Shown here: in pieces, positions 7,244 to 59,601 of the stretch
How the letters are laid out: every line of letters begins with the position of its first letter
How positions within the stretch are numbered: position 1 is the stretch's first letter
Program-made: the position numbers and the translations under genes
The notes under the pieces: model-generated
What the model was told of the DNA's origin: nothing
Databases searched by the model: none
The model's input: the letters and a program-made list of their open reading frames with translations, nothing else
DNA from: an uncultured Candidatus Saccharibacteria bacterium
GTDB lineage: Bacteria > Patescibacteriota > Minisyncoccia > Phycocordibacterales > UBA9973
DNA length: 64,000 bases
NCBI GenBank assembly: GCA_964554645.1
Contig: CAZKPK010000001.1
Coordinates: forward strand, 3,697-67,696
Direction: 5' to 3'

Positions 7244-8383
7244 ATGGATAATCCGTTTAAAAAAATATTTTCCAGTATAAGAAATCTCACAAAAAGTGGA
7301 GAAGATAGCGCTGTTGGCATTGATATTGGTTCTTCCGCAATCAAGGTGGTTGAGATAAAAAGGAAAAGAGGCAAAGTGGTGCTTGAAACCTATGGAGCAA
7401 TAGCTCTTGGTTCCTATGACGCCCTTGATGTGGGGCGTGTCACCAATCTCTCGGTTGAAAAGATGGCGGAAGCTCTCAAGGAGGTCTTGAAGCAGTCCGG
7501 GATTACCACTACTTCAGGGGCTTTTTCTATTCCCATCCAATCAAGTTTAATTTTTGCCGTTGAACTTCCGGTTCAGGCTAAAGAAAGCGAGATAGCGACA
7601 ATTATTCCCACTGAAGCTCGCAAGTATATTCCGGTGCCAATTACGGAAGTTTCTCTTGATTATTTTATCTTGCCTCAAAAAGAACCTTCTTTTGAAGAGA
7701 TGAATGCAGTTGTTGATAATCCCGACATTCCGCAAAAGCCGACAGATAAAACAAGCGTGCTTGTGGTGGCGACGCAAAATGACGCAATTTCCAAATATCG
7801 TTCCATCGTTTCTCAATGCTCTCTCTCCGCCTCTTTTTTTGAAATTGAAATATTTTCTTCAATCAGGGCGAATTTTGAACACGAACTTTCTCCAGTGCTG
7901 TTGATGGATTTCGGCGCCTCCCGCACGAAACTCTCTTTGGTTGAGTTTGGAATGGTCAAAAGTTACCATACGATAGATAAAGGGGGAGCCGATATAACCG
8001 ACTCTATTTCCAAATCTTTAAGTATTCCTTTCAGTGAGGCGGAAAAAATGAAAAAAGAATTTGGTCTCTTTGAAAATCCGGTGGAAAAAAGTTTGTCGGA
8101 TATCATCAGAATCCATATTGATTATATTTTTTCTGAAGCCAATAATGTGCTGTTGGAGCATGAGAAAAGATACAATAAAACTATAAGCAAAGTGATATTT
8201 ACAGGCGGCGGATCTCTTTTGAAGGGGCTGAAAGAAGTGGCGGCAAATAATTTTCGAGCGGAAATAGAAATCGGCCATCCTTTCAGCAAGGTCAATGCTC
8301 CAGCCTTTTTGGAAAAAGTTTTGGAAACGATGGGTCCCGAATTCGCCGTCGCCTTGGGACTGGCGTTGCGAAAGTTGCAGTAA
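7244..8383 (+). CDS. pilM: type IV pilus assembly protein PilM (actin-like ATPase fold)
   Basis: GIDIGSSAIKVVE N-terminus, length and first position in the pil operon. Confidence 0.85.
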   Translation: MDNPFKKIFSSIRNLTKSGEDSAVGIDIGSSAIKVVEIKRKRGKVVLETYGAIALGSYDALDVGRVTNLSVEKMAEALKEVLKQSGITTTSGAFSIPIQSSLIFAVELPVQAKESEIATIIPTEARKYIPVPITEVSLDYFILPQKEPSFEEMNAVVDNPDIPQKPTDKTSVLVVATQNDAISKYRSIVSQCSLSASFFEIEIFSSIRANFEHELSPVLLMDFGASRTKLSLVEFGMVKSYHTIDKGGADITDSISKSLSIPFSEAEKMKKEFGLFENPVEKSLSDIIRIHIDYIFSEANNVLLEHEKRYNKTISKVIFTGGGSLLKGLKEVAANNFRAEIEIGHPFSKVNAPAFLEKVLETMGPEFAVALGLALRKLQ

Positions 8384-8390
8384 AAAATTA

Positions 8391-8437
8391 TCCACCCCGT
8401 CCTTTGATTACAAAGTCCACCCCTCAAGAGGGGAATC
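8391..8437. repeat. Family-A palindromic repeat unit (TCCACCCCGTC-ctttgattacaaag-TCCACCCCTCAAGAGGGGAAT)
   Basis: 47 nt identical to the copy at 16013-16061; contains the CCCCTC-AA-GAGGGG hairpin. Confidence 0.85.
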
Positions 8438-8444
8438 AGAAAAA

Positions 8445-8945
8445 ATGAAAGAAACTACCCCAAAAAAAGAAAAGTTTAAAGAAGTAATTGTTTCAGATGA
8501 AATTAGAAAATATCTTTCAGAAGCTACATGGCTGAAAGAGGGGGAAGATGTTAGACTCCCGGATTATATAAGACTCAAAACTGAAATAAGAGATATTTTA
8601 GTCCGAGTTGGAATTTGGTCGGATGAATTTTCTAAATGGCTAGATATGAATCTTGACGGTGTAAGTTTGCTGGGCAAACAAATTGAGGCAGTAGGCCAAT
8701 GGATGGAACGCAAAGATAATAAATATAGAAAAGAAAACTTAGAACATTACCGTGCTGGTGCAAAAACAAGCCTAGAATATTTGGAAGGCTGGTCTCCAGC
8801 ATTTGAAAAGTGGCTTCTTGATGGTTTGCCAGGAGATCTGCAAAAAGTTGGTGAAAACATGGATTATATAGGGAGAGTGTCTAGCACTATCGGAGCTATT
8901 AATATGGCAAAAAGATTGCTTAAGAAAAAAAAAGATCAAAAGTAA
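8445..8945 (+). CDS. hypothetical protein (166 aa) inside a repeat-bounded insertion between pilM and pilN
   Basis: ORF 8295..8945 trimmed to the first ATG after repeat A1. The upstream 50 codons are repeat-derived (..HPSRGE..). Confidence 0.5.
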   Translation: MKETTPKKEKFKEVIVSDEIRKYLSEATWLKEGEDVRLPDYIRLKTEIRDILVRVGIWSDEFSKWLDMNLDGVSLLGKQIEAVGQWMERKDNKYRKENLEHYRAGAKTSLEYLEGWSPAFEKWLLDGLPGDLQKVGENMDYIGRVSSTIGAINMAKRLLKKKKDQK

Positions 8946-9009
8946 ACTATATTTCAACATGAGGAAGCGATATAAACAGAAAAGTAATAATCTAGATTAA
9001 AATAACTAT

Positions 9010-9522
9010 ATGCGCAATAGGCAACCATCCACCCCGTCTCGACTAAAGTCGAGTCACCCCTCAAGAGGGGAACGTCCACCCCGACGCAAGCGTCACCCCT
9101 CAAGAGGGGAATGGAATCCAAAATCTCTATATCCATATTGGGAAATTCCTAAAAACAAAATTTTGACTGATAGGGCAAAAGATTTAAGAAAGGCGGGTAA
9201 TTTATCTGAAGTTATTTTTTGGCAAACTTTTAAAGATAAAAATAAATTAGGTTTTGATATTGATAGACAAGTTATAATCGGCAATTATATTGTAGATTTT
9301 TTTATTCCCGAACTAGGTTTAGTTTTTGAGATAGACGGTTCAAGTCATGACGATAAGCTTGAATATGATGCTGAACGAGATGCTTTTATGAGAGATTTAA
9401 ATTTAAAAGTGGTTAGAATTCTTGATATTGATGTGAAGAAGAATCTAGGAAGTGTCTATCAATTTGTATTAGAAACAATACATAAAAGAAAAAAGGATGC
9501 ATTTGAATTATTCCCCTCTTGA
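9010..9522 (+). CDS. DUF559 / Vsr-like (very-short-patch-repair endonuclease fold) domain protein
   Basis: C-terminal 110 aa match the DUF559 architecture (IVDFFIPELGLVFEIDGSSHDD...YDAERDAFMRDLNLKVVRI). N-terminal 35 aa are a translation of repeat A2 (HPSRGE x2). The stop codon TGA lies inside repeat A3. The true start may be an internal TTG near 9160. Confidence 0.7.
   Translation: MRNRQPSTPSRLKSSHPSRGERPPRRKRHPSRGEWNPKSLYPYWEIPKNKILTDRAKDLRKAGNLSEVIFWQTFKDKNKLGFDIDRQVIIGNYIVDFFIPELGLVFEIDGSSHDDKLEYDAERDAFMRDLNLKVVRILDIDVKKNLGSVYQFVLETIHKRKKDAFELFPS
9027..9117. repeat. Family-A palindromic repeat, two tandem units
   Basis: ATCCACCCCGTC-TCGACTAAAGTCGAG-TCACCCCTCAAGAGGGGAA followed by GTCCACCCCGAC-GCAAGC-GTCACCCCTCAAGAGGGGAAT. 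Confidence 0.85.
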
Positions 9523-9598
9523 GGGGTACTCCGACTTCAGTCGGAGTGGGGTGGATGTATGAGGGGTGACCCGATGACCATCGGGTCGGGGTGGATAG
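9511..9598. repeat. Family-A palindromic repeat, inverted orientation (TTCCCCTCTTGAGGGGT-ACTCCGACTTCAGTCGGAGT-GGGGTGGAT plus a degenerate second unit)
   Basis: reverse complement of the A consensus; supplies the stop codon of the DUF559 gene. Confidence 0.85.
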
Positions 9599-9665
9599 CT
9601 GTAGAACCAGAGTTATGCACATTATATTTCACTTAAGTTTGTTTTTGTAATATAATTAAGATACG

Positions 9666-10271
9666 ATGGAGCAGAGTTTCCAAACATCATTTATACCTAA
9701 AAAACCGATAGTGAAAGAACGCGCCATTCCGGCGCGACCTATTGGTATTTTTATCATCATTACTATTTTTGTTTTATTCACCGTGCTTTTGGCAACCGTC
9801 GCTCTTTATTTCTATAAAGGGATTTTGGCAAAGAACATTACGCAAATGGAGAATGACTTAAATCTGGCTAAAAATCGTTTTGAACCTTCTAAAATAACGG
9901 AGCTCCAGCTATTAGACAAGCGTCTGCGCGCATCAAGTGAAGTTCTGTCTCATCATATAGCTATCACGCCTGTCTTTCAAGCATTGCAAGCCATTACTAT
10001 GAAAACTGTCCGTTATACTAAGTTCAGTTATGATTTTGGGAATACGAAAGATGCGAAAGATACGAAAGTGATTATCAAATTAAGCGGCCAGGCAGTCGGT
10101 TATCGCTCGGTTGCTCTGCAATCTGATCTTTTTGCTAAAAATAAAAATTTAATTGATCCAGTTTTTTCCAACCTGGCGCTTGATGACAAAGGCAATGTCC
10201 TTTTTGATCTGGAATTTTCGGTCGATCCGTCTTTGGTTGATTATAAGCAAATGCTCTTAACCCAAAGTTAA
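9666..10271 (+). CDS. pilN: type IV pilus assembly protein PilN-like (bitopic membrane protein)
   Basis: single N-terminal TM helix after a short cytoplasmic segment, about 200 aa, operon position after pilM. Confidence 0.6.
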   Translation: MEQSFQTSFIPKKPIVKERAIPARPIGIFIIITIFVLFTVLLATVALYFYKGILAKNITQMENDLNLAKNRFEPSKITELQLLDKRLRASSEVLSHHIAITPVFQALQAITMKTVRYTKFSYDFGNTKDAKDTKVIIKLSGQAVGYRSVALQSDLFAKNKNLIDPVFSNLALDDKGNVLFDLEFSVDPSLVDYKQMLLTQS

Positions 10272-10276
10272 TTTTT

Positions 10277-10897
10277 ATGATGCGATTTATTCTGCCAATT
10301 ATTTTGTTAGGAATCAGCGTGGCTGTTTTTATCATGTTCTCTAATCCTATTTACAATGATATTGGGGGATTGCGCGCGCAGACAGCGTCCTTCAATGAAG
10401 CGCTAAATAATTCCAAAATGCTTGAAAATGAACGAGATAAATTAACTTCCAAATATAATTCTATTGATATAGATAATTTAGCAAAACTCCAAAAGCTTTT
10501 GCCGGAAAATATTGACAATATACGCTTGATTCTTGAGATAGAACAGATAGCCTTGCCTTACGGCATGGCCTTGAAGGATGTAAAATACAATGCGACAGCT
10601 GACAAAGATAAAGCAAGCTCTGCGTCTCCTGTAGCCGGGGTTGCGCAAGGTGGCGAAACGGTCCAATCTTCTTCCAAAGATTATGGAGTTTGGGATTTGG
10701 AGTTTTCCACAACCGGTGCTTACAGCAATTTTCTTAATTTTACAAGAGATCTGGAAAGCAATCTTCGAATTGTCGATATATCATCAATTGCTTTTTCATC
10801 TGATACGAGTAGTGATTCCAGTTCGGCCCCCAAGTCTCCGTCTACCGAATCTTATAAATATAATTTTAAAATTAAGACTTACTGGCTAAAAAATTGA
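10277..10897 (+). CDS. pilO: type IV pilus assembly protein PilO-like
   Basis: N-terminal TM helix, coiled-coil region, operon position. Confidence 0.5.
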   Translation: MMRFILPIILLGISVAVFIMFSNPIYNDIGGLRAQTASFNEALNNSKMLENERDKLTSKYNSIDIDNLAKLQKLLPENIDNIRLILEIEQIALPYGMALKDVKYNATADKDKASSASPVAGVAQGGETVQSSSKDYGVWDLEFSTTGAYSNFLNFTRDLESNLRIVDISSIAFSSDTSSDSSSAPKSPSTESYKYNFKIKTYWLKN

Positions 10898-11402: not shown

Positions 11403-13151
11403 ATGAGTTTTTTAGAAGAACTAGCTAAAGAAGAGGTAATTAAAAAAAGCCAAATAGGCGAGATTAAAAACCGCGCGCAAGAGAAATTTGGAGGAGACAT
11501 AGATGAAGCCTTAATTGAATCCGGGATAACGGAGGAAAAAATTCTTGAAGTCAAAGGAAAATATCTGCAAATGCCGGTAAAGAAAGTGGCCAAGGATAAA
11601 TTGACTTTTGATGCTCTAAAATATATCTCGGAAGATTCAGCGACACACTATCATTTTGCTCCGATCGAGTTGCGAGAAGGAGTGCTAGAAGTGGGCGTTA
11701 CAAATCCGGAAAATATGCAAGCGATGAATGCGTTGCAATTTATCTCTGCCAAACTAGGCATTCCGTTCAAAGTGTATTTGATTTCTAAAAGTGATTACGA
11801 AAGCGTCATGGAGACTTATAAAGGCATAGGGAGCCAGGTGGAAGAAGCGCTCAGTGAGTTGGATCAAGAAGAGATAGCTAAAGCTGGAGGTCTGAGTGAA
11901 GAAAATTTAAGTAAAGAAATTAAGAATATAAAGCCGGGTGAAGAAACAAAAATAGTGGAAGATGCGCCAGTCATAAAAATCGTGGCGGTTATATTGCGTA
12001 ATGCCATAGAAGGCAATGCCTCCGATATCCATATTGAATACACTGGAGAAAAAGTGAAAGTGCGTTTTCGCGTGGATGGAAGTTTGCATACCACCATAGT
12101 GTTGCCTCCGAACATTTACGGCGGAATAATAGCACGTATAAAAATTTTGGCCAAGCTTCGACTGGACGAAAAAAGAAAACCTCAAGATGGATCGTTTAGC
12201 GCCAATATTGACGGACGCAAGGTTGATTTTCGCGTTTCTACCATGCCGGCGTATTATGGCGAGAAAGTTGCGATGCGTATTCTAGATTCCGAAAAAGGGG
12301 TCAAGCCTTTGGATCAATTGGGTTTATCAGAAACCAATCTCAAGATGATCCGAGAAGCGCTAAAATTGCCATACGGACTTATTTTAATCACTGGCCCAAC
12401 GGGATCAGGAAAATCTACGACCTTATATTCAATGATGAATGAACTCGATCGGGAAAAAAGCAATATTGTGTCTCTAGAAGATCCAGTGGAATATCATATG
12501 TCTGATATTAACCAATCGCAGATGATGCCGGAGATCGGATATACTTTCGCTTCCGGACTTCGTTCTATTCTCCGCCAGGACCCGGATATAATAATGGTTG
12601 GAGAAATTCGCGACAAAGAAACAGCCCAGCTGGCTATTCAAGCGGCTTTAACCGGGCACCTGGTTCTTTCTACGCTTCACACGAACAATGCTATTGGGGC
12701 AGTGCCTCGCCTGGTTGATATGGGGGTTGATCCGTATTTGATTGCGCCCACTCTTATTCTTTCCATTGCTCAACGTCTGGCCAGACTGACTTGCCCAAGT
12801 TCTCGAAAACTTATTCCGATGGACGAAAGCATTAAAATGCAGATCGAAGAGCAATTAAAAGATTTACCGAATGAATTTAAAAAAGAAATTGGAGTAAAGG
12901 GACAGATGTATGACACGGTTCCCTCGAACGAATGTCCTTCTGGCACCAGAGGGCGGATTGCTATTTTTGAAATGTTTAAAATAGACAAAGAAATGCAGAA
13001 TGTGATATTGAAAAGCCCGACGAATGGAGAAATCTACAGAGTCGCCCGCAAAAAAGGAATGCTAATGATGAAAGAAGATGCCATGCTTAAGTCCGTCAAA
13101 GGCATTATTCCTTTTACGGAAGTTTATAACTTTAGCAATGAGAATGAATAG
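11403..13151 (+). CDS. pilB: type IV pilus assembly ATPase PilB (GspE family)
   Basis: Walker A GPTGSGKST; Asp and His boxes; C-terminal Cys tetrad (CPSS...CPSG); N1/N2 domains. Confidence 0.92.
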   Translation: MSFLEELAKEEVIKKSQIGEIKNRAQEKFGGDIDEALIESGITEEKILEVKGKYLQMPVKKVAKDKLTFDALKYISEDSATHYHFAPIELREGVLEVGVTNPENMQAMNALQFISAKLGIPFKVYLISKSDYESVMETYKGIGSQVEEALSELDQEEIAKAGGLSEENLSKEIKNIKPGEETKIVEDAPVIKIVAVILRNAIEGNASDIHIEYTGEKVKVRFRVDGSLHTTIVLPPNIYGGIIARIKILAKLRLDEKRKPQDGSFSANIDGRKVDFRVSTMPAYYGEKVAMRILDSEKGVKPLDQLGLSETNLKMIREALKLPYGLILITGPTGSGKSTTLYSMMNELDREKSNIVSLEDPVEYHMSDINQSQMMPEIGYTFASGLRSILRQDPDIIMVGEIRDKETAQLAIQAALTGHLVLSTLHTNNAIGAVPRLVDMGVDPYLIAPTLILSIAQRLARLTCPSSRKLIPMDESIKMQIEEQLKDLPNEFKKEIGVKGQMYDTVPSNECPSGTRGRIAIFEMFKIDKEMQNVILKSPTNGEIYRVARKKGMLMMKEDAMLKSVKGIIPFTEVYNFSNENE

Positions 13152-14687: not shown

Positions 14688-14735
14688 GACCACAGGTCAG
14701 ACCTGTGGGATTCCCATAGGTCTGACCTATGGAAC
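14688..14735. repeat. Family-B REP doublet (CCACAGGTCAGACCTGTGG plus CCCATAGGTCTGACCTATGG)
   Basis: two adjacent imperfect-copy palindromes between pilT stop and pilC start; second unit matches the REPs flanking the RAYT gene at about 34.1-34.8 kb. Confidence 0.8.
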
Positions 14736-15953: not shown

Positions 15954-15960
15954 GATTGAT

Positions 15961-16077
15961 TCTCCTCTTGAGGAGTACTCCGACTCAGGTCGGAGGGAGG
16001 TGGATGAGTTTTTCCACCCCGTCCTTTGATTACAAAGTCCACCCCTCAAGAGGGGAATCGCTACCCCTGTGGATAAC
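15961..16077. repeat. Family-A composite repeat (degenerate inverted unit plus forward unit identical to A1)
   Basis: TCTCCTCTTGAGGAGTACTCCGACTCAGGTCGGAGGGAGGTGGAT followed by TTCCACCCCGTCCTTTGATTACAAAGTCCACCCCTCAAGAGGGGAATCG. Confidence 0.85.
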
Positions 16078-16241
16078 TTTCTTGCATGTTTTTTTGCCTC
16101 TATATGATATAATTACTCCATTAGAAAAATATTTCAGCCATAGGCTGATCCGCCTTAGGCGGAAAAAATAAGTCGAAAATATATTATTATTAGTTAATTA
16201 TTATTGACTTGCCCCGCTGGGGCGGGGTAGATAAATAAATT

Positions 16242-29438: not shown

Positions 29439-31367
29439 ATGAAAATTTCTTATAATTGGCTCAAATGGTATATACCGGAAGCGCCTCCCGCAAACAAACT
29501 TGCGGATATTTTTAATTACCATATTTGCGAAGTGGAGAGTGTCCAACACCGAGTGTTGGACAAAGATAAAGATTGGATTTTTGATTTAAAAGTTTTGCCG
29601 AACCGCGCGCATGATTTACTTTCACATCAGGGAGTCGCTCGCGAGCTTGCTTCACTTTTAGATATCAAATATGTAGATCCCACGCCGAAATATAAAATTC
29701 CCGCCTCCGCCAAGGCTGCCCCCTTCGCTGAAGTGGCTACGAAGGCCAAGTCGGCGGGCAAGCCGGAATTAAAAATTGATGTTCAAACGCCTTTATGCAG
29801 GCGATATATGGGCAGAATTATAAGGGGAATAAAAATCGGTCCCAGTCCGGAGTGGATGGTGAAGCATTTAGAATCAATAGGACAGAGAAGTATAAATAAT
29901 ATTGTAGATGCCGCCAATATTGTAATGTTTGATTGCGGACAGCCGACTCATGCTTTTGATCTGGATAAAATGAATAGCAAGATAATAGTGCGCGAGGCAG
30001 AAAATGACGAAGACATAACCACTTTAGATAATCAGGGAATAAAATTAAAAAGTTCAAATATGGTGATTGTAGATTCTAAAAATATTTTAGCGATTGCCGG
30101 AATAAAAGGCGGGAAGATTGCGGAAGTGGACAATAATACAAAAAATATAATTCTTGAGGTTGCTAATTTTGATCCGGTTTCGGTGCGGAAAACAGCTCAA
30201 GCCTTTAATCTATTTACCGACGCGCGAAAGAGGTTTGAAAATGACCTGTCGCCAGAATTGGCACCATATGCCATGCGCGAACTCTCGGCTCTCATTTTTG
30301 AAATGTGTCCGGACGCTATTTTTGAAGATGTTGTGGATGTTTACCCCCACACCAATGATATTGGTGTGGGGGTTTATCCTGAAAAACAAAAGGAGAAAAA
30401 ACTTTCTTTTTCGGCTGAAAGAATTTCAAAAATTTTAGGACTCAAAGTTTCAGTTAAAGAAATAGAAAATATTTTGCAGAGATATAATTTTAGGTATAAA
30501 GAAAATAAAGGGAAATTTGAGGTTGTTGTGCCACCGATGCGTCTTGATTTAGCAATAGAAGAAGATATGGCGGAAGAGATAGGTAGAATTCTGGGATATG
30601 ATAAAGTAAAACCACAAATTCCCCACATGTCTGACATGTGGGAACCACAGGTTAATGAGATTTATGCAAAAATTTCCTGGGTCAGAAATAAATTATTGGC
30701 TGATGGATATTCCGAAGTGATGACTTATACTTTTCGAGAAAAGGGAGAAATAGAAGTGCAAAATAGCGCTTCCGATAAAAAGTTTTTGCGAACGAATTTA
30801 ACTGATGGATTGAAAGAAAGCGTTAAATTAAATCACGCCAATGCCCCGCTGTTAGGAATTGACGAAATTAAAGTTTTTGAAATTGGAACTGTTTTCAAAA
30901 AAGATAAAGAGCAGATAAATATTTGTTTTAGTGACAAAAAAAATATCACAGAAGTTTCTTTAAATGATTTTTGTAAAGATATGCTTTCTAGTGATTCTCC
31001 TCTTGAGGAGTACCCTTTAGGGGGAGGTGGAAAATTTATCCACCCCGTCGCAAGCGCCACCCCTCAAGAGGGGAATAGATTCAAGATGTGGTCTTTGTTT
31101 CCTTTCATTGCGCGCGATATCGCTGTCTTTGTGCCGGAAAAAATTAAGAGTTTGGAAATAGAAAAAATAATAAAAAAGAATATGGGAAATATGGTGATTC
31201 GAGGTCCGGAACTTTTTGATGAATTCAAAAAAGGCAATCAGATTTCTTATGCCTTCAGATTGGTTTTTCAATCTTACGATCGGACACTGACAGACGCAGA
31301 AGTGAATGAAATTATGGATAAAATAACTGACAAAATTAAGAAGAATAAAGGTTGGCAAGTAAGGTAA
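29439..31367 (+). CDS. pheT: phenylalanine--tRNA ligase beta subunit with in-frame Family-A repeat insertion
   Basis: B3/4, B5 and FDX-ACB-like domains. Residues ..SPLEEYPLGGGGKFIHPVASATPQEGN.. are encoded by the repeat at 30997-31078. Confidence 0.9.
   Translation: MKISYNWLKWYIPEAPPANKLADIFNYHICEVESVQHRVLDKDKDWIFDLKVLPNRAHDLLSHQGVARELASLLDIKYVDPTPKYKIPASAKAAPFAEVATKAKSAGKPELKIDVQTPLCRRYMGRIIRGIKIGPSPEWMVKHLESIGQRSINNIVDAANIVMFDCGQPTHAFDLDKMNSKIIVREAENDEDITTLDNQGIKLKSSNMVIVDSKNILAIAGIKGGKIAEVDNNTKNIILEVANFDPVSVRKTAQAFNLFTDARKRFENDLSPELAPYAMRELSALIFEMCPDAIFEDVVDVYPHTNDIGVGVYPEKQKEKKLSFSAERISKILGLKVSVKEIENILQRYNFRYKENKGKFEVVVPPMRLDLAIEEDMAEEIGRILGYDKVKPQIPHMSDMWEPQVNEIYAKISWVRNKLLADGYSEVMTYTFREKGEIEVQNSASDKKFLRTNLTDGLKESVKLNHANAPLLGIDEIKVFEIGTVFKKDKEQINICFSDKKNITEVSLNDFCKDMLSSDSPLEEYPLGGGGKFIHPVASATPQEGNRFKMWSLFPFIARDIAVFVPEKIKSLEIEKIIKKNMGNMVIRGPELFDEFKKGNQISYAFRLVFQSYDRTLTDAEVNEIMDKITDKIKKNKGWQVR
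30997..31078. repeat. Family-A composite repeat (degenerate inverted unit plus forward unit) inside pheT, in-frame
   Basis: CTCCTCTTGAGGAGTAC..GGAGGTGGA followed by ATCCACCCCGTCGCAAGCGCCACCCCTCAAGAGGGGAAT; same composite arrangement as 15961-16077. Confidence 0.85.
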
Positions 31368-33507: not shown

Positions 33508-34095
33508 ATGAAAAAATTAATCTTAGCTTCAAGTTCAAGCACAAGGAAAAATTTGCTTACAGAAGCCGGCTTGAATTTTGAAATTGATCCAAGTAGTTAC
33601 GAAGAAGATATAACATTATTAATGTCTCCAAAAGAATTAGTGGCTCATTTATCTTACGGTAAAGCAAAAGATGTAGCATCGAGGCACCAAGAAGCCATAG
33701 TTCTAGGAGCTGATACAATTATTGTCTATCAAGATAAAATTCTCGGTAAACCTCATACATCGGAAAGAGCTAAAGAAATGTTAAAAATGTTAAGTGGTAG
33801 GGCACACTTAGTTGTTACTGGTTTTACAATAATTGATACGAAAAATAATCATAGCATCTCCAAAGTTGTAGAAACAGAAGTGTTTTTCAAAAATCTCACA
33901 GATAGAGAAATAGATAATTATGTAGCTACCGGTGAACCACTGAATAAAGCAGGGGCTTATGCAATTTTAGAGAATGGTGGCAAATTTGTTAAAAAGATCG
34001 AAGGAAGTAGAACAAATGTGTCAGGTTTACCCATGGAGGAGTTAATGAATGTTCTAAAAAATTCCCATAGGTCAGACCTATGGGATGTGTTATAA
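33508..34095 (+). CDS. maf: Maf-like nucleoside-triphosphate pyrophosphatase; C-terminus encoded by a REP element
   Basis: KLILASSSSTRKNLL...GKP...; final residues ..NSHRSDLWDVL are a translation of REP copy B2. Confidence 0.85.
   Translation: MKKLILASSSSTRKNLLTEAGLNFEIDPSSYEEDITLLMSPKELVAHLSYGKAKDVASRHQEAIVLGADTIIVYQDKILGKPHTSERAKEMLKMLSGRAHLVVTGFTIIDTKNNHSISKVVETEVFFKNLTDREIDNYVATGEPLNKAGAYAILENGGKFVKKIEGSRTNVSGLPMEELMNVLKNSHRSDLWDVL
34063..34086. repeat. Family-B REP (TTCCCATAGGTCAGACCTATGGGATG)
   Basis: perfect palindrome; 5' flank of RAYT gene and 3' end of maf. Confidence 0.85.
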
Positions 34096-34102
34096 TAGCA
34101 GT

Positions 34103-34780
34103 ATGAGTCTCAGAGATTCGAATTTAGTGGAAAAAGAGTATTATCATATTTACAATCGCGGTAATGGAAAAAATAAAATTTTTAATTCCATAGAAGATTA
34201 CGATCGTTTTTGTAAACTTCTTTTTATTTGTAATTCTGAAAGAAGTTTTACATTCAGAGATTCAGTCGTAGATCAAAAAATTGATGCCTGGGATTTTGAA
34301 AGGGGAGAACCGCTTGTGGAAATATGTGCATGGGTTTTAATGCCTAATCATTTCCATATAATTTTAATTTCCCATAGGTCGGACCTATGGGATGAGAAGT
34401 ATAATCCAATAACGGAATTTATGAGAAAACTTTCTACGGCTTACGCTATGTATTTTAATAAGAAATATAACCGCACTGGATCTCTTTTTGAAGGAAAGTT
34501 TAAGTCTAAACATATTAGCAAAGATAATTATTTCCATTATTTATTTTCTTACATTCATCTTAATCCAATTAAATTAATCCAACCAGATTGGAAAGAAAAT
34601 GGTATCAAGAATAAAAAAGAAGCGATTGCTTATCTTATGAATTTTAAATATTCAAGTTTTCAAGATTTTTATGGTGTCTCTAGAAAAGAAGGAAAGATAA
34701 TAAATAAGAATTCGTTACCAGAAGATTTTAAATACAATCATGTTGAGGAACTTTTTGAATGGATAACTGATTCCCCATAG
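34103..34780 (+). CDS. REP-associated tyrosine transposase (RAYT; IS200/IS605-like Y1 HuH transposase)
   Basis: HIYNRG motif, HuH motif (PNHFHIIL), catalytic Tyr region (YIHLNP); flanked by, and interrupted in-frame by, Family-B REPs; stop codon TAG lies inside REP B4. Confidence 0.8.
   Translation: MSLRDSNLVEKEYYHIYNRGNGKNKIFNSIEDYDRFCKLLFICNSERSFTFRDSVVDQKIDAWDFERGEPLVEICAWVLMPNHFHIILISHRSDLWDEKYNPITEFMRKLSTAYAMYFNKKYNRTGSLFEGKFKSKHISKDNYFHYLFSYIHLNPIKLIQPDWKENGIKNKKEAIAYLMNFKYSSFQDFYGVSRKEGKIINKNSLPEDFKYNHVEELFEWITDSP
34369..34394. repeat. Family-B REP inserted in-frame inside the RAYT gene (encodes SHRSDLWD)
   Basis: TCCCATAGGTCGGACCTATGGGATG immediately after the HuH motif codons. Confidence 0.85.
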
Positions 34781-59542: not shown

Positions 59543-59587
59543 CGCGTTAAAATTCCCCTCTTGAGGGGTGGCTCGGTAATCCGAGAC
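59543..59587. repeat. Family-A palindromic repeat, inverted orientation
   Basis: TTCCCCTCTTGAGGGGTG-GCTCGGTAATCCGAGAC-GGGGTGGAT. Confidence 0.85.
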
Positions 59588-59601
59588 GGGGTGGATGTAT
59601 T

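Follow-up and report, generated by a model that had tools for sequence, protein, structure and literature searches.

The DNA stretch analysed here (64,000 nucleotides of contig CAZKPK010000001.1 from an uncultured Candidatus Saccharibacteria bacterium, hereafter the window) contains a pilus gene cluster in which pilM and pilN are separated by a cassette of two genes and several palindromic repeats. One of the two genes encodes a DUF559 nuclease. Sequence comparison with related genomes supported the view that the DNA between pilM and pilN is a real and old insertion, a selected module and not a recent hop. We lean towards reading it as an old module comparable to the partnership of repetitive extragenic palindromic (REP) sequences with REP-associated tyrosine transposases (RAYT), in which the DUF559 protein would act as the dedicated nuclease of the repeat family, a link that we infer.

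The upstream border of the insertion is pilM (7244-8383, + strand; Pfam PilM_2 2.1e-39; NCBIfam TIGR01175 3.6e-46), with its stop codon at 8381-8383, and the downstream border is a pilN-like open reading frame (ORF) at 9666-10271 (+ strand). The pilN-like ORF matched no Pfam or other family and was assigned from its single transmembrane segment, its position before pilO and the synteny in the loci of 74 relatives. It is followed by pilO (10277-10897; weak Pfam PilO match, E 2e-7, no single stretch passing), an ORF of 141 amino acids (aa), pilB (11403-13151), a response regulator gene, pilT, pilC and a pilin gene. The interval from the pilM stop to pilN measured 1,282 nt and contained two ORFs on the same strand (ORF1 and the DUF559 ORF) as well as five repeat copies. 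Coordinates, ORFs and repeats were checked and agreed with the first-pass annotation, which had described a gap of 1.28 kb with two genes and repeats. The insertion had been said to start 8 nt past the pilM stop, where the first unit in fact lies 6-7 nt past it; its end had been placed correctly at about 70 nt before pilN, the last unit ending 68 nt upstream of the pilN ATG.

All five repeat units were recovered with a covariance model. Unit 1 (8389-8437, + strand, 60.6 bits) is canonical, consisting of ATCCACCCCG, a variable hairpin and CACCCCTCAAGAGGGGAAT, and forms the left outer end of the cassette; the same unit type fills the same junction in two related loci (L095 and L104). Units 2 (9026-9072, 51.4 bits) and 3 (9073-9113, 59.3 bits, with a short hairpin) are likewise canonical, lie on the + strand and are translated in frame as ..STPSRLKSSHPSRGE and RPPRRKRHPSRGE, respectively. 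The inverted unit 4 (9509-9557, - strand, 61.7 bits) carries the stop codon of the DUF559 gene (..ELFPS*). Unit 5 (9558-9597, - strand, 19.3 bits, E 5e-6), also inverted and with a degenerate tail box, forms the right end of the cassette. The cassette is bounded by units at both outer ends, as proposed earlier; however, the best-matching inverted pairs bracket only the DUF559 gene and not the whole 1.28 kb, the best match (9026-9072 with 9511-9557) being 81% complementary.

The repeat family and the DUF559 gene

An 18-nt core of the repeat (CACCCCTCAAGAGGGGAA) occurred nine times in the window, compared with 0.02 occurrences expected from shuffles. In an alignment of 31 units from 12 genomes, the unit of about 47 nt consisted of an invariant left box (TCCACCCC-G), a hairpin with a stem of 4-8 bp (hairpin 1) and an invariant right part (CACCCC-TCAAGA-GGGG-AAT) that forms a short hairpin of its own (hairpin 2). 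The invariant boxes CCACCCCG and CACCCCTCAAGAGGGGAAT flank a hairpin 1 of freely varying sequence in which pairing is kept. All eight pairs of this stem (8/8) were changed on both sides in the alignment, and double-change cells numbered 54 vs 17 in shuffles, with 0/500 shuffles reaching 54. Paired cells amounted to 91.7% for this structure vs 77% in shuffles and 36-63% when the partners were slid; the second pair from the stem base was unpaired in 15 of the 31 units. A variant unit type (CCACCTCC ... TACTCCTCAAGAGGAGAA) showed a compensated C-G to U-A change in hairpin 2. No known RNA family was detected in 8200-9800 at E <= 1.

Units also occurred as head-to-head pairs of one canonical and one variant unit. 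This composition was found in all seven head-to-head pairs of the window and the relatives' loci, and among the metagenome matches listed there were 31 canonical+variant pairs vs two canonical+canonical pairs. Folding of the pair at 15958-16059 as single-stranded DNA yielded an outer stem, two arm hairpins and an inner stem (-29.1 kcal/mol, z -6.5), a predicted shape resembling a four-way junction. When the sequences were paired by hand, the positions at which canonical and variant units differ gave T.G and A.C oppositions within both the outer and the inner stem. The outer ends of the pairs were TTCYCCTCTTGAGGRG and CYCCTCAAGAGGRGAA.

The DUF559 gene (9010-9522, + strand) encodes a Vsr-like PD-(D/E)xK nuclease (Pfam DUF559 1.5e-21; 76.8 bits vs a gathering cut-off of 20.6), and its stop codon TGA (9520-9522) is located inside a repeat unit. 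Residues 1-35 are encoded by repeat units and the core comprises roughly residues 50-167; in the AlphaFold2 (AF2) model the N-terminal 48 residues were disordered and the core was confidently folded. The uncharacterised structure 3hrl was the sole sequence-level match of the core in the Protein Data Bank (PDB; 1e-12). Foldseek returned 3hrl, the Vsr-like homing endonuclease I-Bth0305I (PDB 3r3p; probability 1.0, template modelling score (TM) 0.70) and PvuRts1I/AbaSI, with Vsr as a weaker match. Among characterised structures I-Bth0305I is the closest, and resolvase-type PD-(D/E)xK enzymes are found lower in the fold list. A relationship between the DUF559 protein YcjD of E. coli and Vsr has been reported (PMC1189080). 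Residues D96, E107, D109 and H113 were invariant in 43 sequences, the ratio of nonsynonymous to synonymous divergence (dN/dS) was 0.02-0.18, and dS between DUF559 copies was 0.6-2.2, with synonymous sites saturated. The low dN/dS, the high dS and the invariance of the catalytic-type residues indicate that the nuclease is functional and that its gene is intact, old and under strong purifying selection. No second DUF559 gene or pseudogene was found in the window, no DUF559 relative was found in viral contigs, and the defence-system and phage libraries (PADLOC, PHROGs) returned only weak nuclease-domain echoes for the protein. No integrase or transposase domain was detected in this only repeat-bounded gene, whose product has a nuclease core of about 120 residues.

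The embedding of the gene ends in repeat units extended to other genomes. The loci read for gene ends were those of the window, L011, L021, L047, L088, L089, L095, L096, L098, L102, L104 and L165. In every one of them the start codon lay just upstream of a unit translated in frame (..HPSRGE..), and in nearly all of them the gene closed with a TGA contained in an inverted unit (..FPS*); L021 and L165 have an in-frame (+) unit after the gene, and the L089 stop falls shortly ahead of the unit. Of 518 homologues, the best 120 included at least 91 with a repeat-encoded N-terminus and about 85 ending in (K/L)FPS.

The gene occupies few sites: pilM/pilN (window, L011, L021, L095, L104), pilB/response regulator (L047, L089-L094, L096/L097), rpoD/dsbA (L088, L098/L099, L102/L103) and a position upstream of map (L100/L101). 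Solo units occur at two of these sites in genomes without the gene there, in L044 at pilB/response regulator and in the window at the 3' end of the DsbA-like gene (59551-59597, - strand, covariance model), where the 3' unit of the DUF559 cassette is located in L088, L098 and L102. In two further loci (L162, 860-1560; L151, 1800-2460) the whole DUF559 module, with units at its outer ends, lay in frame within an ORF resembling hsdS (type I restriction specificity), so that ORF and module form one stop-free frame of 612 codons.

The repeat family is dispersed well beyond the gene. The covariance model identified 11 units at five loci of the window. A head-to-head pair (variant on the - strand, canonical on the + strand) is located between pilC and the pilin gene (15958-16059), a junction at which L089 and L096 lack it; a degenerate unit with left box and hairpin and no tail box (16199-16233) lies directly upstream of the pilin start codon. 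Another head-to-head pair (30993-31077, covariance model) is in frame in pheT (29439-31367). It lengthens the protein by about 27 residues (..DSPLEEYPLGGGGKFIHPVASATPQEGN..) directly ahead of the C-terminal anticodon-binding domain, and L176 and L146 carry an insertion at that site too. In the L146 pheT a further, different repeat-encoded peptide (..FPSPLQGEGLGVRS..) was seen between the two units, which hints that these genomes contain one more family of translated repeats.

A scan of metagenome contigs with a 20-nt core returned at least 120 stretches, and those listed contained 158 units with 92 different hairpins, 139 of the 158 in stretches without a DUF559 gene. Units were mostly located just past stop codons, and 22 of 95 well-flanked clusters (about 23%) fell inside long stop-free frames. 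Units or pairs of the family were observed in frame in L111, L182, L124, L134, L208, L158 and L226, in host genes that we named by eye from their translations as uvrB, purD, a uvrD-like helicase gene and tgt. The in-frame site was shared for UvrB in two genomes, for PurD in three and for PheT in the window and two more. The repeat boxes were identical across the same genomes in which dS of the DUF559 gene was saturated. Repeat cores were found in only four of 80 relatives' loci in the genome scan (about 800 kb), namely L011, L021 and L047 with DUF559 and L044 with one solo unit, and a single 4-kb viral contig carried one unit.

Synteny, age and the pilM/pilN junction

Eighty loci from species-level relatives, with PilM 67-85% identical to that of the window, were fetched and pilM, pilN, pilO, pilB, ORF1 and DUF559 were placed in them by tblastn. 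Both pilM and pilN were present in 74 of the 80 loci, and in about 64 of these 74 they were 22-150 nt apart with neither ORF1 nor DUF559. The first-pass annotation had suggested this synteny check and named, as the outcome that would speak for an ancestral arrangement, the same two genes without repeats in all relatives; pilM directly before pilN, as found in these loci, supports insertion instead. Ten loci showed a larger gap, and two of them (L011, L021) held a DUF559 gene 83-88% identical to that of the window together with the same repeats. Protein look-ups revealed DUF559 and the same repeats at pilM/pilN also in L095, with a different cargo ORF of 101 aa, and in L104 (GW2011_GWB1_36_5), a different species (PilM 80.5%) that shares the full ORF1 (79% identical) and DUF559 pair.

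A rough neighbour-joining (NJ) host tree of PilM+PilN+PilB, calculated without support values, placed the four members with DUF559 at pilM/pilN in one subclade, interspersed with ten that lack DUF559 there, so that a single old insertion followed by several losses would fit the sequences, as would repeated gains. In clades outside this subclade pilM and pilN are 22-40 nt apart with no trace of the two genes. The arrangement was assembled independently in the NCBI metagenome-assembled genome (MAG), in Logan contigs L004 and L006 and in another species as L104-L107. Short contigs (L002, L005, L007) break inside the repeats, as expected for multi-copy sequence. The saturation of dS and the filling of the same junction across species indicate that the insertion is old and not recent.

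The pilM/pilN junction is a general landing site in the loci compared. It contains a gene for a RAYT-like Y1 transposase, accompanied by REP hairpins of its own, in L030 (7499-8203), L044 (7187-7867) and L074 (2069-2752), a HicAB pair in L076 (7179-7607), a PemK-like gene and others in L050 (7128-9373), and an ORF of 168 aa with no assigned family in L032. An element of about 85 nt resembling a miniature inverted-repeat transposable element (MITE) was also observed at the pilN ATG in L009, L013, L024, L047 and L050; it has terminal inverted repeats (TIRs) GGATCCCGTTAGAAAT and regenerates ATGGA at its far end.

Every insert at pilM/pilN was located upstream of a conserved promoter-like element of pilN (9612-9656, + strand), which lies outside the insert and consists of GTTATGCACA followed by TTCACT-17-TATAAT (10/12 matches in a promoter scan). 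The pattern AGTTATRCACA ... TTCnyT-17-TATAAT precedes pilN in 46 loci, with the insert present or absent. Since no intrinsic terminator was predicted on the + strand of the cassette, read-through into pilN is also possible; restart at pilN's own promoter is likelier because of the conserved element between cassette and pilN. The pilN-pilB genes therefore very probably have their own promoter, and the cassette probably does not deprive them of transcription and is tolerated, not disruptive. Part of the element, GTTATRCACA (9612-9621), fits the DnaA-box pattern TTATNCACA and is kept across the 46 loci, and a perfect reverse DnaA box (TGTGGATAA, 16072-16080), also kept across relatives, is found upstream of the pilin promoter; these sites may be regulator sites or chance matches.

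The first gene of the cassette, ORF1 (8445-8945, + strand), encodes an orphan all-helical protein of 166 aa that was modelled confidently as a helical bundle (AF2 pLDDT 84.7). It matched nothing in Pfam, NCBIfam, PADLOC or PHROGs, and no fold match was found in the PDB (best E 0.42) despite the confident model. Only ten relatives were present among 1.84 billion representatives, and the cassette setting was restricted to the window lineage and L104, at the same position. A distant homologue in L108 adjoins a RAYT-like gene and is bracketed by the REP hairpins of that gene. ORF1 is read as an orphan passenger of repeat hot spots, that is, as variable cargo. Downstream of it, 13 codons (MRKRYKQKSNNLD*; 8959-9000, + strand) are the remnant of a Cys-containing ORF of 45 aa, beginning MRKRYKQK... 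as does the product of L104 4515-4652; in L104 this ORF is intact between ORF1 and DUF559. No homology was found among the small ORFs upstream of DUF559 in five of seven loci (all but L011 and L047). Unrelated orphan genes such as ORF1 have accumulated between the outer and the inner repeats.

A RAYT-like Y1 transposase gene is also encoded in the window (34085-34780), 44% identical to that of L044. It is flanked by its own, different REP hairpin (CCATAGGTCRGACCTATGG) at 34065 and 34775, and a third copy of this RAYT-type REP (34372-34390) was observed in frame inside the RAYT ORF itself (..SHRSDLWDE..). The window's RAYT was considered as the owner of the DUF559-type repeats and was rejected, as it is flanked by a different REP. 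The window accordingly holds two repeat families, each bracketing its own nuclease gene. The hairpin CCATAGGTCRGACCTATGG is further found twice in tandem at pilT/pilC (14690-14732). The earlier statement that pilM-pilN is the only junction with an insertion holds for the genes from pilM to pilB; farther down the cluster, pilT/pilC carries these two RAYT-type REPs and pilC/pilin the DUF559-type pair, and the pilus cluster as a whole shows repeats of two different families at three junctions.

Comparison with known repeat systems

In REP systems, Y and Z REPs are paired in bacterial interspersed mosaic elements (BIMEs), and the RAYT genes (TnpA-REP) are IS200/IS605-like Y1 genes. The concept of REP/REPIN and RAYT has been described (PMC3116915). 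The family studied here is similar in that its repeats are short structured palindromes, scattered for the most part just past the ends of genes, that two sequence types form inverted pairs, as do the Y and Z REPs in BIMEs and as in REPINs, and that, as with RAYT, the flanked nuclease gene is conserved, apparently vertically inherited and present in one copy in the 64-kb window. It differs from REP/RAYT in that the flanked gene encodes a DUF559, Vsr-like PD-(D/E)xK nuclease and not an HUH Y1 transposase, the repeats overlap the start and stop of this gene and are translated, a hypervariable central hairpin lies between invariant boxes, and many copies are in frame inside coding genes. Literature searches found no connection of DUF559 or ycjD to REP, mobile elements or inverted repeats, nor any between RAYT and the Candidate Phyla Radiation.

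Other systems share single features with the cassette. As in MITEs and transposons with TIRs, inverted units bracket the gene; unlike these, there is neither a target-site duplication nor a cognate transposase in the repeat-bounded gene. Free-standing homing endonuclease genes of the Vsr-like EDxHD type, such as that of I-Bth0305I, resemble the DUF559 gene in placement, patchiness and catalytic fold, whereas the DUF559 gene is chromosomal and not phage-, intron- or intein-borne, is absent from the viral contigs searched, is long-lived under purifying selection and is linked to a repeat family found throughout the genome. Rickettsia palindromic elements (RPE) are likewise palindromic repeats in frame in conserved genes, at linker positions and kept across species; they show no sequence relationship to the units and belong to a different host phylum, and no cognate nuclease gene is known for them, whereas a candidate is present here. 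Integron attC sites also have conserved boxes around a variable centre with kept pairing and separate small unrelated ORFs in one orientation. In contrast to attC, the R/L box consensus was not apparent in the units by eye, the cargo ORFs apparently have their own promoter-like sequences, and the units are dispersed genome-wide and not arrayed. No integrase gene was seen in the annotated neighbourhoods of the cassettes, in which no dedicated integrase search was made, and the integron reading was set aside by eye.

A distant parallel was found in E. coli K-12 (L109, NC_000913.3, 1351029-1351839), where the stop codon of the DUF559 gene ycjD falls within a partial, inverted copy of a GC-rich dispersed repeat. 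Just downstream come a duplicate of 39 nt from the 3' end of the gene and a full repeat copy. Across 5426 E. coli genomes this repeat occupied a median of 16 places each, and it is probably BoxC, going by its copy number. BoxC has been described as a 56-bp element with 22-32 copies (PMC2267715). The E. coli locus thus resembles the cassette in that a DUF559 stop falls in an inverted copy of a dispersed palindromic repeat, and differs in the sequence of that repeat.

Relation between nuclease and repeats

The association of DUF559 genes with the repeat family is well supported as an association, and from the sequences we infer the following mechanism. The folded unit, or the four-way-junction-like shape adopted by a pair, would be recognised by the DUF559 protein and nicked or cut, after which units, and now and then the gene too, would be copied, homogenised or moved by host repair or recombination. 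A cognate link of this kind is preferred over chance neighbourhood because two repeat families in the window each bracket their own nuclease gene and because the ends of the DUF559 gene are embedded in units. Under a second account, the repeats would be REP- or MITE-like sequences, owing their movement to a RAYT, a different transposase or host processes, that pile up in permissive intergenic spots and overwrite the ends of a host repair-type nuclease gene. The variety of inserts at this junction in other genomes, from RAYT with REPs to HicAB, a PemK-like gene and the 85-nt MITE, marks a general hot spot and would suit such an account, as would the RAYT-like protein encoded in the window and the units in many genes without DUF559 nearby. 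We nevertheless regard it as improbable: chance would not be expected to embed both ends of the gene in units at four separate sites and in most of the 120 best homologues, three of the only four relatives' loci with repeat cores also carry DUF559, and the RAYT is flanked by a different REP. That the two genes are ancestral and lost elsewhere, or that the arrangement is an assembly artefact, is very improbable. The confinement of the four DUF559 carriers at pilM/pilN to one host-tree subclade would allow one old event followed by losses; however, the close spacing of pilM and pilN outside this subclade, the restriction of ORF1 to the window lineage and L104, and the independent assemblies contradict this explanation.

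The most serious competitor, which we still consider unlikely, is a free-standing homing endonuclease. A selfish DUF559 protein would cut at or near units, or at a few intergenic sites, and its gene would be copied in by recombination; the repeats would then be landing pads and homology arms, spread by another process and not made by the nuclease. A small nuclease ORF between conserved genes, patchy among close relatives, fits this picture, and so do the recurrence of few sites, the solo units that mark the same sites in genomes without the gene, the fold, which among characterised proteins is nearest to I-Bth0305I, and the gene in frame inside the hsdS-like ORF. Against homing, the saturated dS and the dN/dS of 0.02-0.18 point to long residence under selection and not to a cycle of gain, decay and loss, degraded DUF559 copies are missing from the window, and the genome-wide identity of the repeat boxes and the canonical+variant pairing rule would be left unexplained.

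Several observations also weigh against a REP/RAYT-like module built on DUF559. A nuclease of about 120 residues is incapable of strand transfer, and spread by way of host recombination is assumed. The check for a target-site duplication suggested earlier for 8384-8391 and 9598-9660 revealed none (left flank AAAATT, right flank AGCTGTAGAACCA), and none was found at the pilC/pilin pair, the pheT pair, the dsbA solo unit or the hsdS insertion. No recently moved copy was found: the synonymous sites of the cassettes are saturated without a sign of recent movement, and movement is not evident for the in-frame insertions either, because they share sites in orthologous genes of different genomes. Unit orientation differs by subfamily ([+]gene[-] in the pil loci, [-]gene[+] in the hsdS case), and DUF559 identity sorts neither by insertion site nor clearly by host. 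Detection of units by regular expression favours conserved copies, and the E. coli parallel is a single locus.

For the pilus cluster the consequence of the insertion is modest and the cassette is tolerated, because the genes from pilN onwards very probably have their own promoter. Taken more broadly, it is conceivable, although we put this forward only tentatively, that DUF559 proteins are dedicated structure-specific nucleases of dispersed junction-forming palindromic repeats and constitute a second, non-HUH partnership of the REP/RAYT kind, acting on CCACCCCG-hairpin-CACCCCTCAAGAGGGGAAT units in Patescibacteria and, as YcjD, on a BoxC-like repeat in E. coli. The Patescibacteria units would in addition seed in-frame insertions in apparent housekeeping proteins. 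If this holds true, it would provide a function for DUF559, a large and widespread family annotated only as "endonuclease-like", and a testable origin for repeat families without a known enzyme, possibly including BoxC of E. coli. It would also mean that the REP/RAYT principle, a domesticated nuclease maintaining structured repeats, arose on a second, unrelated enzyme scaffold, and it could explain the repeat-derived peptide insertions in conserved proteins of the reduced Patescibacteria genomes.

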